Shown: positions 27,761 to 30,088, counted from the first letter of the stretch. The stretch is 64,000 nucleotides of DNA from Escherichia coli 042 (GCF_000027125.1 NC_017626.1); one strand, 5' to 3'. Numbers and translations are program-made. Notes: generated by a model not told the origin, from the sequence alone.

Positions 27761-29089
27761 ATGTCCAGAATCAATAAGTTCGTACTTACAGTCAGTCTGC
27801 TGATTTTTATCATGATTTCAGCAGTTGCCTGCGGGATCTACACTCAAATGGTAAAGGAACGGGTGTATGGCCTGAAACAGTCCGTTATTGATACTGCTTT
27901 TGCGGTGGCAAATATTGCTGAATATCGGCGTAGCGTGGCAATTGATCTCATCAACACGCTAAACCCCACGGAGGAACAGCTGTTGGTTGGCTTGCGCACA
28001 GCTTACGCCGACTCGGTTTCACCCTCTTATTTGTACGATGTCGGTCCTTATCTGATTTCCAGTGACGAATGTATTCAGGTAAAGGAGTTCGAGAAAAATT
28101 ATTGTGCAGATATTATGCAGGTTGTGAAGTATCGACATGTCAAAAATACAGGGTTTATCTCTTTTGACGGTAAAACTTTCGTCTATTACCTCTATCCGGT
28201 AACTCACAATCGCAGTCTGATATTTTTGCTTGGTCTGGAGCGTTTTTCTTTACTGTCAAAATCGCTGGCGATGGATAGCGAGAACCTGATGTTCTCTCTG
28301 TTTAAGAACGGTAAACCGGTGACCGGTGATGAATATAATGCTAAAAACGCCATCTTCACCGTTTCGGAAGCGATGGAGCACTTCTCCTATTTGCCGACCG
28401 GATTGTACGTATTTGCGTATAAAAAAGATGTTTATTTGCGGGTTTGTACGTTGATTATTTTCTTTGCCGCATTGGTGGCAGTGATATCGGGTGCCAGTTG
28501 CCTCTATCTGGTACGCAGAGTGATTAATCGTGGTATTGTGGAGAAAGAAGCCATTATTAATAACCATTTTGAACGCGTACTAGATGGCGGGCTTTTCTTT
28601 TCGGCTGCCGATGTCAAAAAACTCTACAGTATGTATAACTCGGCGTTCCTGGACGACCTGACTAAAGCGATGGGCAGAAAATCCTTTGACGAAGATTTAA
28701 AAGCGCTACCGGAAAAAGGTGGTTATTTGTGCCTGTTTGACGTCGATAAATTCAAAAACATCAACGACACCTTCGGTCATTTGCTGGGCGATGAAGTGTT
28801 GATGAAAGTGGTGAAAATCCTTAAATCACAGATCCCGGTAGATAAAGGTAAAGTCTACCGCTTCGGCGGTGACGAATTTGCGGTGATTTATACGGGTGGA
28901 ACGCTGGAAGAGTTGCTATCGATTCTAAAAGAAATCGTTCATTTCCAGGTGGGAAGCATTAATTTAAGCACCAGTATCGGTGTAGCGCATTCAAATGAAT
29001 GTACTACCGTCGAACGCTTGAAAATGCTGGCGGATGAGCGGCTGTATAAGAGTAAGAAAAACGGCAGGGCGCAGATTAGCTGGCAGTAG
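27761..29089 (+). CDS. dgcI: Diguanylate cyclase DgcI (YliF), 442 aa
   Basis: Membrane/sensor N-terminus plus GGDEF domain (RFGGDEFAV); AT-rich. Confidence 0.9.
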
Positions 29090-29106
29090 AATTAGAATAG
29101 TGTTAG

Positions 29107-29130
29107 TACCCCTTAATCAAGGGGTACTAA
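29107..29130. repeat. Perfect hairpin palindrome agtacccctt-aatc-aaggggtact between convergent dgcI and the antitoxin gene
   Basis: 10-bp perfect stem with 4-nt loop read from the sequence; sits between the stops of convergent dgcI (29089) and the antitoxin (29159). Confidence 0.5.
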
Positions 29131-29158
29131 TGAATGTGGTAAATCATTTGCAAACATT

Positions 29159-29488
29159 TTACTTTGCAAAAACTTCCGGTCCTTTTATTGCCAATGTATT
29201 CAAAATACGTAGTGCCGGGCCGCTCGGTTTTATTTCATTTCGTTCCCATTTCGAGACACTTTCTTTTGACATTCCCATTGTATGTGCCAGCACGGATTGT
29301 GACATGCCGTATCGGGTGCGGATGGCTTTGATCTCTTCACCCGTCATTGATTTGACTTTGGCTATACGGGCGCTGACTTCACGAGCTTTGACCATGACGG
29401 CAATGGCATCAACTTCACTATCAGACATCAGGCCCAGTGCATTCAGTTCCTTTGCATCTTCCAGCATCATTTGTAATTTATCGCTCAT
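29159..29488 (-). CDS. HigA-2-like antitoxin with C-terminal XRE-type HTH domain (109 aa)
   Basis: MSDKLQMMLEDAKELN...EIKAIRTRYGMSQSVLAHTMGMSKESVSKWERNEIKPSGPALRILNTL: HTH followed by the W-E-x-x-x-x-P-S-G-P-A signature remembered from HigA-2/YiaG-like antitoxins; ATG overlaps the upstream toxin 3' end by 11 nt. Confidence 0.8.
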   Translation of the reverse strand: MSDKLQMMLEDAKELNALGLMSDSEVDAIAVMVKAREVSARIAKVKSMTGEEIKAIRTRYGMSQSVLAHTMGMSKESVSKWERNEIKPSGPALRILNTLAIKGPEVFAK

Positions 29489-29864
29489 TTTTCACCTCAA
29501 TCAAAAAGCCAGTTTCGATCAAATCCTCTATTTGCTTATTGCTAAAGGCCAGAAATGCATTTGCCATTTTTTTGTAGGCCACCAGTTCATCATCTTCGAT
29601 TTCTTTGGTTCCTTTACTGCTTAGACCACTCTTGGACCAACCATCATAAAAAAACACATGATTTGCTGATTTAAAAAAGATAATTGTTCTGGCTCCACCA
29701 CTCTTTCCTTGTTGGAGGGGTAAACGTTTTTTGATGACACCGCTACCTAAATCAGCCTCCCATATGCCTTGCATCACTTCTTCAGCGGCAGCCATGAGAA
29801 CTTTATCGTGAATACCAAGTTTTTTCGTGCTTTGGCTGAATCGTCTTGCCTTATACACACCCAT
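29478..29864 (-). CDS. HigB-2-like (RelE-fold) type II toxin, putative ribosome-dependent mRNA interferase (128 aa)
   Basis: MGVYKARRFSQ...QQGKSGGARTIIFF...FFYDGWSKSG...IEDDELVAYKKMANAF: GK-GG-R-I-F ... K ... L core resembles Vibrio HigB-2-type toxins (from memory); toxin-first arrangement with translational overlap to a downstream HTH antitoxin. Confidence 0.8.
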   Translation of the reverse strand: MGVYKARRFSQSTKKLGIHDKVLMAAAEEVMQGIWEADLGSGVIKKRLPLQQGKSGGARTIIFFKSANHVFFYDGWSKSGLSSKGTKEIEDDELVAYKKMANAFLAFSNKQIEDLIETGFLIEVKNER

Positions 29865-29879
29865 ACATCCATCCTTGTG

Positions 29880-29916
29880 GTAATGTTTACTATAGTAACC
29901 ATTACGCTTATTTCAA
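29880..29916 (-). promoter_or_regulatory. Putative sigma70 promoter (-35 TTGAAA, 16 nt, -10 TATAGT) of the toxin-antitoxin operon with overlapping operator palindrome
   Basis: Minus-strand read: TTGAAA(29916-29911)-N16-TATAGT(29894-29889); imperfect palindrome GTAATGnTTACTATAGTAAnCATTAC (29880-29905, 2 mismatches) spans the -10. Confidence 0.5.
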
Positions 29917-30040
29917 GTAATTGCGATCAAAACTTTAATTTGGTGTGAAAAAGTGAGAGTTGCCTCGAGTATGATTCATTTTTCTCGATTTATACGTCAG
30001 GGGATTTTGTGCGTAAGGGTAGGACATGGGAAGGGTAGCA

Positions 30041-30078
30041 GAGGCAGATCGAAGAACAATATCCTTGTTAGATCTGCC
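30041..30078. repeat. Interrupted inverted repeat aggcagatc...(aacaa-tatcc-ttgtt)...gatctgcct just downstream of rimO
   Basis: Read from the sequence; possible rimO terminator hairpin and/or right boundary of the toxin-antitoxin cassette. Confidence 0.4.
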
Positions 30079-30088
30079 TTTAGATTAA

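Follow-up and report, generated by a model that had tools for sequence, protein, structure and literature searches.

A conserved palindrome across the -10 element as candidate autoregulatory operator of a HigB2/HigA2-type toxin-antitoxin operon in Escherichia coli 042

A HigB2/HigA2-type gene pair between dgcI and rimO

We focused on a pair of minus-strand genes between dgcI and rimO in Escherichia coli 042 (NC_017626.1), which lie in a 64,000-nucleotide stretch of DNA that was analyzed as a whole and is referred to here as the window (all positions are counted from its first letter). The toxin gene comes first and the antitoxin gene second, with an overlap of 11 nt, and the same toxin-antitoxin gene order is annotated in E. 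coli O55:H7. The main features of the locus are as follows.

29089-30083, both strands: strain-variable 995-bp segment with the whole toxin-antitoxin (TA) module and its promoter
29103-29130: perfect stem of 12 bp closed by a 4-nt loop, located where the antitoxin gene and dgcI converge; candidate bidirectional terminator
29488-29159, minus strand: antitoxin gene, 109 amino acids, with a C-terminal XRE-type helix-turn-helix (HTH) domain at about residues 48 to 100
29864-29478, minus strand: toxin gene, 128 amino acids, Pfam PF06296 (HigB-2-type mRNase of the RelE fold)
30042-30079: terminator-like hairpin between rimO and the TA module, downstream of rimO

The toxin covers the full PF06296 profile (E value, 2.3e-32; 112 bits at a cutoff of 27), a family that includes HigB-2 of Vibrio cholerae (PMC11980606). 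A pairwise search of solved structures with the toxin sequence returned nothing, even at an E value of 1, and the likeness to V. cholerae HigB-2 is thus seen at the profile level only, where a toxin family profile built from 22 homologues matches the HigB-2 chains 5ja8 and 5ja9 (E value, 2e-5). When aligned to the active-site residues of HigB2 (K49, R51, R64, Y82, and K84, as listed in PMC10098735), the toxin shows K45, R47, R59, W76, and K78, i.e., four identical residues and a replacement of Tyr by Trp (W76), and all five are invariant or nearly so in the 22 toxin homologues.

The antitoxin matches the HTH_3 model with its C-terminal part (E value, 1.9e-9), and a profile of 65 antitoxins matches HigA-2 (5j9i and 5jaa) at an E value of 5e-14, ahead of P22 C2 and MqsA. 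In the AlphaFold2 model of the antitoxin (pLDDT, 93.9), the N-terminal region consists of two confident helices. The best Foldseek matches of this model are HigA2 chains (5jaa and 5j9i), including that of the HigB2-HigA2-operator complex 8a0x, and its C-terminal domain superposes on HigA2 with a root mean square deviation (RMSD) of 1.1 to 1.2 Å (best, 1.1 Å over 61 alignment columns; Foldseek against 5j9i, RMSD of 1.1 Å and TM score of 0.83). As in the V. cholerae higBA2 operon (5j9i, 5jaa, 8a0w, and 8a0x), a PF06296 toxin is encoded first, and the antitoxin resembles HigA2 in combining an N-terminal toxin-binding part with a C-terminal XRE-type HTH dimer domain; the N-terminal region is disordered in V. 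cholerae HigA2, whereas it is predicted to be helical here. An inverted repeat located between the -35 and across the predicted -10 element, a trait of HigB2/HigA2-type operons, is present at the sequence level as well. Given the PF06296 match together with the profile, HTH, Foldseek, and active-site results, the gene pair is, as judged from sequence and predicted structure, a HigB2/HigA2-type type II TA module.

Other assignments were tried and abandoned. A MqsR/MqsA module was rejected because the toxin matches PF06296 only. The antitoxin has matches to MqsA and NadS models that stay below threshold and are confined to the C-terminal HTH domain, and an identity as MqsA was dismissed on the same grounds (TIGR03830, 47.1 bits at a cutoff of 61.8; PF15731, 20.6 bits at a cutoff of 30; C-terminal HTH only). 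Moreover, no cysteine occurs in its 109 amino acids and hence no zinc-binding CxxC...CxxC domain. A Tad-Ata module was also dropped, since Tad has been placed in PF05973 (PMC11980606) and the toxin described here belongs to PF06296. PADLOC returned generic HTH matches only, with no defense-system assignment, and a literature search retrieved no study of the E. coli dgcI-rimO TA locus.

Distribution of the module in E. coli

E. coli has two alleles of the intergenic region between dgcI and rimO. In K-12, the two genes are separated by a 42-bp terminator, which is replaced here by the 995-bp TA-bearing segment, and homology to the segment stops exactly at the stop codons of both dgcI and rimO. 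The segment has no flanking repeats and no recombinase gene. It is carried by 1,138 of 5,426 complete E. coli genomes (∼21%), among them O157:H7, O55:H7, and IAI39, and among the matches listed, every one overlaps rimO or dgcI. The segment is annotated only generically. One copy of the module was found on a 730-kb E. coli record labeled as a plasmid (CP088669.1), which may be a chromid or a part of the chromosome that was wrongly assigned.

At the dgcI end of the segment, the stem at 29103-29130 (TTAGTACCCCTT aatc AAGGGGTACTAA) folds strongly on either strand (-17.7 and -19.3 kcal/mol; z score, about -5), and only two further palindromes of its class occur in the window. The stem lacks a clear U-tract. 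We consider that it probably acts as a bidirectional terminator standing in for the K-12 terminator.

The 60 bp comprising the promoter and the candidate operator are identical in 1,122 of 1,135 carrier genomes, and the one promoter variant that was inspected carries its change at palindrome position 21, a variable position. Likewise, the window differs from an O55:H7 strain by 14 substitutions per kb, with none between 29845 and 29971. Given that these genomes are clonally related, the near identity of the 60 bp within E. coli is weak evidence.

A palindrome spanning the -10 element of the predicted toxin promoter

Directly upstream of the toxin gene, the minus strand reads cgcaattac TTGAAA taagcgtaatggttac TATAGT aaacattaccac AAGGA tggatgt ATG, with the toxin ATG at 29864. 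The following elements can be recognized in it.

29916-29911, minus strand: -35-like hexamer TTGAAA (5 of 6 matches to TTGACA), with a 16-nt spacer
29905-29880, minus-strand reading GTAATGGTTACTATAGTAAACATTAC: 26-bp palindrome without a spacer, 12 of 13 pairs; candidate operator
29905-29895: upstream 11-bp subpalindrome GTAATGGTTAC (GTAA-N3-TTAC), within the promoter spacer
29894-29889, minus strand: -10 hexamer TATAGT, from sequence reading and consensus scan
29890-29880: downstream 11-bp subpalindrome GTAAACATTAC, from the end of the -10 hexamer to the predicted start site
29876-29872, minus strand: Shine-Dalgarno sequence AAGGA, 7 nt ahead of the ATG

The original prediction had proposed a minus-strand promoter TTGAAA-N16-TATAGT about 20 nt upstream of the toxin ATG, followed by a Shine-Dalgarno sequence AAGGA. 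The same hexamers were obtained here both by direct reading and by the consensus scan (10 of 12 hexamer matches), and the AAGGA was found ahead of the toxin ATG; the position of the promoter upstream of the toxin gene holds too, with the distance corrected to 24 nt between the end of the -10 hexamer and the ATG. Judging from the -10 position, transcription is predicted to start at about 29882-29881.

According to the repeat finder, the two 13-nt arms of the palindrome abut directly (0 nt apart) and are 92% complementary. The palindrome begins in the promoter spacer, spans the -10 hexamer, and extends to about the predicted +1, leaving 15 nt up to the toxin ATG. That a 26-bp imperfect palindrome lies over the -10 had been claimed before and is borne out, although it is not exactly centered on the hexamer: the dyad axis falls at 29893/29892, 1 bp off the hexamer center.

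Promoter-like sites as such are not above chance in the surrounding 1.2-kb region, where 2 were found and 2.5 were expected from shuffles. Strong palindromes, in contrast, number 3 in the 64-kb window versus 0.08 expected from 100 first-order Markov simulations, and a pattern derived from the element (GTANNNNTTACTATAGTAANNNNTAC, at most 3 mismatches) has 1 match in the window versus 0 in 100 shuffles. The significance of the site stems from the conservation of the element in homologous loci, as described below.

Elsewhere in the window, a perfect 26-bp palindrome, CTGCATGGTTATGCATAACCATGCAG, occurs at 1595-1620, 11 nt past the stop codon of a 299-amino-acid membrane-protein open reading frame (ORF). 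It is located between the minus-strand ORFs 1631-2530 (299 amino acids) and 829-1455, upstream of the latter; the two ORFs are putatively rhtA-like and dps-like, respectively. This palindrome may serve as a terminator or as a site for a protein.

Conservation of the element in enterobacterial relatives

A scan with one genome per species yielded 80 loci that encode toxin relatives, and the DNA upstream of each toxin start was read. The enterobacterial set consists of 24 homologous loci (22 nonredundant), whose toxins are 43 to 74% identical to the E. coli 042 toxin. An element of the form GTA-N4-TTACTATAGTAA-N4-TAC is present in 20 of these 24 loci, 13 to 24 nt before the start codon and always centered on the -10 hexamer, and the flanking DNA is unalignable. 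When the pattern was searched for on both strands of all 127 kb of these loci, allowing at most 4 mismatches in 18 positions, every match fell at a toxin promoter, in 20 of the 24 loci.

Within the 22 nonredundant loci, palindrome positions 1 to 3, 8 to 19, and 24 to 26 carry 1.0 to 1.9 bits each, versus about 0 to 0.7 bits at positions 4 to 7 and 20 to 23 and in the flanks, with the flanking positions themselves at about 0 to 0.3 bits. The -10 hexamer TATA(G/A)T is nearly invariant at its position in these loci, and palindrome position 25 is an A in all of the homologues. Since the 22-locus alignment was anchored on the pattern itself, it was repeated as an unguided MAFFT alignment, in which the palindrome block is the only conserved stretch besides the ribosome-binding site (a GAGG/GGA block). 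The -35 hexamer is loosely conserved (at least 4 of 6 matches in 14 of 20 homologues, with a spacer of 15 to 19 nt), and is kept far less well than the outer blocks GTA and TAC. Of the 18 conserved positions, 6 belong to the -10 hexamer and would be expected to be conserved without any operator; the other 12 (GTA, TTAC, AA, and TAC) are mirror-symmetric and match no σ70 element.

Two loci with unexpected taxonomic labels were observed. One is a 1.2-kb contig binned as Collinsella sp. (JAIJJM010000872.1), which encodes a toxin 99% identical to that of E. coli and has an essentially identical promoter region. The other is binned as Paenochrobactrum (CANQXU010000004.1), and its upstream region differs by 1 base from that of Morganella psychrotolerans. 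In both cases, a binning error or a very recent transfer seems likely.

The operator pattern was also matched by 10 stretches of viral contigs, none of which encodes a relative of the toxin or the antitoxin; a rough estimate puts the chance expectation at this same number. Four of the 10 are phage repeats of a ATTACTATAG-like motif. In the IMG/VR contigs concerned (L087, L090, L091, and L093), which have no TA homologue, several tandem copies of a motif resembling (A/T)TACTATAG(G/T) are found, and the pattern matches there are due to these copies only. The tandem copies may be phage promoters.

A different palindrome in more distant relatives and the antitoxin recognition helix

More distant relatives, with toxins 30 to 42% identical, carry a different, 19-bp palindrome, TATAnCACTnAGTGnTATA, located in the promoter spacer with its right arm forming the -10 element. 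The carriers include Legionellales, Thiotrichales, betaproteobacteria, and others, and among them are ToxP/AntitoxP of Coxiella. The two operator types go along with different antitoxin helices: M(S/T)xESVSKWE is found with the GTAA-type operator in 19 of 24 cases and with the other type in none, and xSxSTVQKWE is found with TATAnCACTnAGTGnTATA (the CACTnAGTG type) in 30 of 45. The two apparent exceptions to this pairing are weak pattern matches. As the correlation separates two clades, it amounts to about one evolutionary event rather than to many independent changes.

The antitoxin residues that differ between the two types, 76 and 79, align with Arg68 and Glu71 of V. cholerae HigA2. In the crystal structure of HigA2 with its operator, Arg68, Glu71, Asn72, and Arg77 make base contacts (PMC11006873), and all four are different in the E. 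coli antitoxin (Glu76, Ser79, Lys80, and Glu85). The operator type switches along with changes in the recognition helix, which fits a role of the antitoxin as reader of the palindrome.

Comparison with characterized relatives

Autorepression by the antitoxin at the promoter has been reported for three relatives (PMC11006873, PMC10098735, and PMC5906591). In V. cholerae, HigA2 protects 24 bp that contain TGTACGC-N5-GCGTACA, starting directly behind the -35 and extending over the -10 (PMC11006873). The inverted repeat here likewise starts after the -35 and covers the -10; the two differ in that V. cholerae has one 19-bp site, TGTACGC-N5-GCGTACA, whereas the E. coli element spans 26 bp and comprises four GTA(A)/TTAC blocks.

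The ToxP/AntitoxP pair of Coxiella burnetii plasmid pQpH1 (CBUA0028/CBUA0027) has the same gene order as the E. coli pair, and ToxP is 35.5% identical to the toxin described here (tblastn). Its antitoxin and TA complex bind a promoter fragment in electrophoretic mobility shift assays (EMSA), and repression of the promoter was seen in vivo; binding was shown at the level of the fragment, and the site within it was left unmapped (PMC10098735). In this promoter, we found a CACTTAGTG-type palindrome between a TTGACA -35 and a TATAGT -10 hexamer. It is of the other type (TTCACTTAGTGA within TATAnCACTnAGTGnTATA), unlike the E. coli palindrome, and the -10 forms its right arm, versus the center of the palindrome in E. 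coli. The antitoxin helix differs accordingly in sequence (SVSTVKQWE in Coxiella versus SKESVSKWE here).

The CBUA0028 coding sequence as annotated in pQpH1 (NC_004704.2; positions 1111-1566 of the locus) starts 90 nt upstream of where the family homology begins (ATG at locus position 1201), and in this long form it would run through the TTGACA-N17-TATAGT promoter and the palindrome. The database start is probably too long, since PMC10098735 places K79 in the active site, a numbering that agrees with the shorter protein.

On plasmid pAB120 of Acinetobacter baumannii, HigA2 represses the operon promoter with the toxin as corepressor, as seen in gfp reporter assays (PMC5906591). This system is of the HigB2/HigA2 type like the one described here, a likeness drawn from its description only, and its operator is undefined in PMC5906591.

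The MqsA system of E. coli (3gn5, 3fmy, and 3o9x) is also a toxin-first operon, and the HTH domain of MqsA is a relative of that of the antitoxin (TIGR03830, E value of 1.8e-12, below cutoff; 3gn5 profile, E value of 1.4e-5; Foldseek match to 3fmy, RMSD of 1.8 Å). The systems differ in that the toxin here is not MqsR and the antitoxin lacks the N-terminal zinc-binding CxxC domain. The MqsA palindromes, AACCT-N3-AGGTT (PMC4894380), have the same N3 geometry as GTAA-N3-TTAC, with another half-site sequence. MqsA reportedly regulates other promoters as well, whereas there is no second copy of the full 26-bp operator pattern within the 64-kb window.

Alternative explanations for the palindrome

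The symmetry might be a by-product of AT-rich promoter sequence with no specific binder. Such a view can draw on the -10 hexamer forming the center of the palindrome, on the self-complementarity of TATA, on the AT richness of the region, and on the consensus scan, which finds no more sites than shuffles do. What it does not explain are the 12 conserved positions outside the hexamer, which fit no σ70 element (TTAC sits in the place of the extended -10 TGn) and which are kept in mirror symmetry across genera with unconserved flanks. It also leaves the outer GTA/TAC blocks much better conserved than the -35 hexamer, and palindromes of this kind are ∼40 times rarer in simulations than observed. 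We regard a promoter without a dedicated binder as very improbable. A structural role, as a cruciform or, e.g., as an RNA stem in rimO read-through that controls translation or stability of the toxin transcript, appears even less probable. It is true that rimO lies upstream on the same strand and that the palindrome can fold into a stem (-7.6 kcal/mol), but the terminator-like hairpin at 30042-30079 separates rimO from the module, and the stem excludes the Shine-Dalgarno sequence. The fold is no better than that of shuffled sequences (z score, -1.8; 9 of 200 shuffles fold as well), and from the predicted start, only ∼2 to 3 nt of the element would be transcribed. Furthermore, the variable arm positions 4 to 7 and 20 to 23 are complementary in 34 of 80 cells, versus 31.8 expected when the arms are shuffled among the sequences, and this lack of compensatory change argues against a hairpin. 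The RNA hairpin was rejected on the grounds of its weak folding and the missing covariation.

A further candidate binder is another protein, either a host regulator or the recombinase that inserted the 995-bp segment, considering that the module lies within a strain-variable segment replacing the 42-bp terminator of K-12. Against a recombination site, which we rejected, speaks the location of the element 178 bp inside the segment rather than at its edge, and the segment contains no recombinase gene. More generally, the element travels with the toxin gene into unrelated contexts and genera, and its sequence type changes along with the antitoxin helix. We consider another protein a very unlikely occupant. 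Taken together, the 26-bp palindrome is most probably the autoregulatory operator of the HigB2/HigA2-type operon, a reading to which we assign a probability of roughly 0.85. The suggestion that it is the likely binding site of the HTH antitoxin, made originally from the window sequence, is thereby strengthened by the conservation of the element, the absence of covariation, the tracking of operator type by the recognition helix, and the precedent of the relatives.

One site or two

The 26 bp can be decomposed into two 11-bp palindromes that flank TATA and are 15 bp apart from center to center. GTAA-N3-TTAC occurs 4 times in the window versus 0.58 expected, and 2 of the 4 occurrences are in the operator; the isolated exact matches are at 2697-2707 and 22263-22273. 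Because the element resolves into two 11-bp sites, two antitoxin dimers may bind.

Several lineages bear on this point. In Providencia rustigianii, Pantoea allii, Pantoea ananatis, and Chimaeribacter, the upstream 11-mer by the -10 is kept and the downstream one is lost, with the toxin and antitoxin genes intact, and in one Enterobacter locus, GTAA-N6-TTAC is present, only on the downstream side. Owing to these upstream-only lineages, the Enterobacter locus, and the MqsA-like N3 spacing, we lean toward two dimer sites over a single dimer. The 26-bp palindrome is thus probably not one single site, and the sequence data give about even odds to two adjacent 11-bp GTAA-N3-TTAC sites, each bound by one antitoxin dimer. 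Against this arrangement, a half-site spacing of 7 bp would need a dimer geometry other than that of V. cholerae HigA2, which binds a single 7-N5-7 site with half-site centers 12 bp apart (PMC11006873).

The element could also be an operator covered as a whole by one antitoxin dimer centered on TATA, with the HTH helices on the inner TTAC/GTAA blocks and the N-terminal regions on the outer GTA/TAC blocks. The V. cholerae precedent favors such an arrangement, since a single HigA2 dimer occupies the operator there, protecting 24 bp and gaining affinity through N-terminal contacts (PMC11006873); so do the superposition of the C-terminal domain on HigA2 at 1.1 Å and the global dyad, which is well kept in E. 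coli (12 of 13 pairs). However, several independent lineages keep only the upstream 11-bp palindrome with intact genes, the Enterobacter locus retains GTAA-N6-TTAC on the downstream side only, there is no conserved pair of inverted blocks 12 bp apart, and the N-terminal region of the antitoxin is predicted as two confident helices and not as disorder. Coverage by one dimer therefore seems to us a serious but rather doubtful option.

An enterobacterial antitoxin of the HigA2 family might have been retargeted through residues 76 and 79 from a single 19-bp operator to a two-site composite that has MqsA-like half-site spacing and brackets the -10. We put this forward tentatively, as somewhat short of an even chance.

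Proposed mechanism and implications

In the proposed mechanism, a dimeric XRE-type HTH antitoxin, alone or bound to the toxin, would recognize the conserved GTA(A)/TTAC blocks, which flank and overlap the -10 and extend to the predicted start site. As the recognized blocks cover the -10 and the predicted start, the bound antitoxin would keep RNA polymerase off the promoter and repress the toxin-antitoxin transcript; depletion of the antitoxin would open the promoter, and both proteins would be made again. We infer binding, repression, and stoichiometry from the features described above, as well as the transcription start and any role of the toxin as corepressor. If two dimers do bind, they could be bridged by the toxin, so that repression would be cooperative and dependent on the toxin ratio, and some lineages would rely on the upstream site alone.

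An operator of this kind at the promoter is the ordinary arrangement for type II TA pairs, and the understanding of their regulation is unchanged by our findings. The novelty appears to lie in the operator sequence found in the enterobacterial clade and, probably, in its two-site layout. The analysis offers a precise candidate operator, with the consensus given above, for a chromosomal TA module present in about one-fifth of sequenced E. coli. At the level of the family, three operator types (V. cholerae, CACTnAGTG, and GTAA) would be paired with three recognition-helix variants on one fold, and these three operator/helix pairs form a compact natural system for the coevolution of HTH specificity and operator layout.
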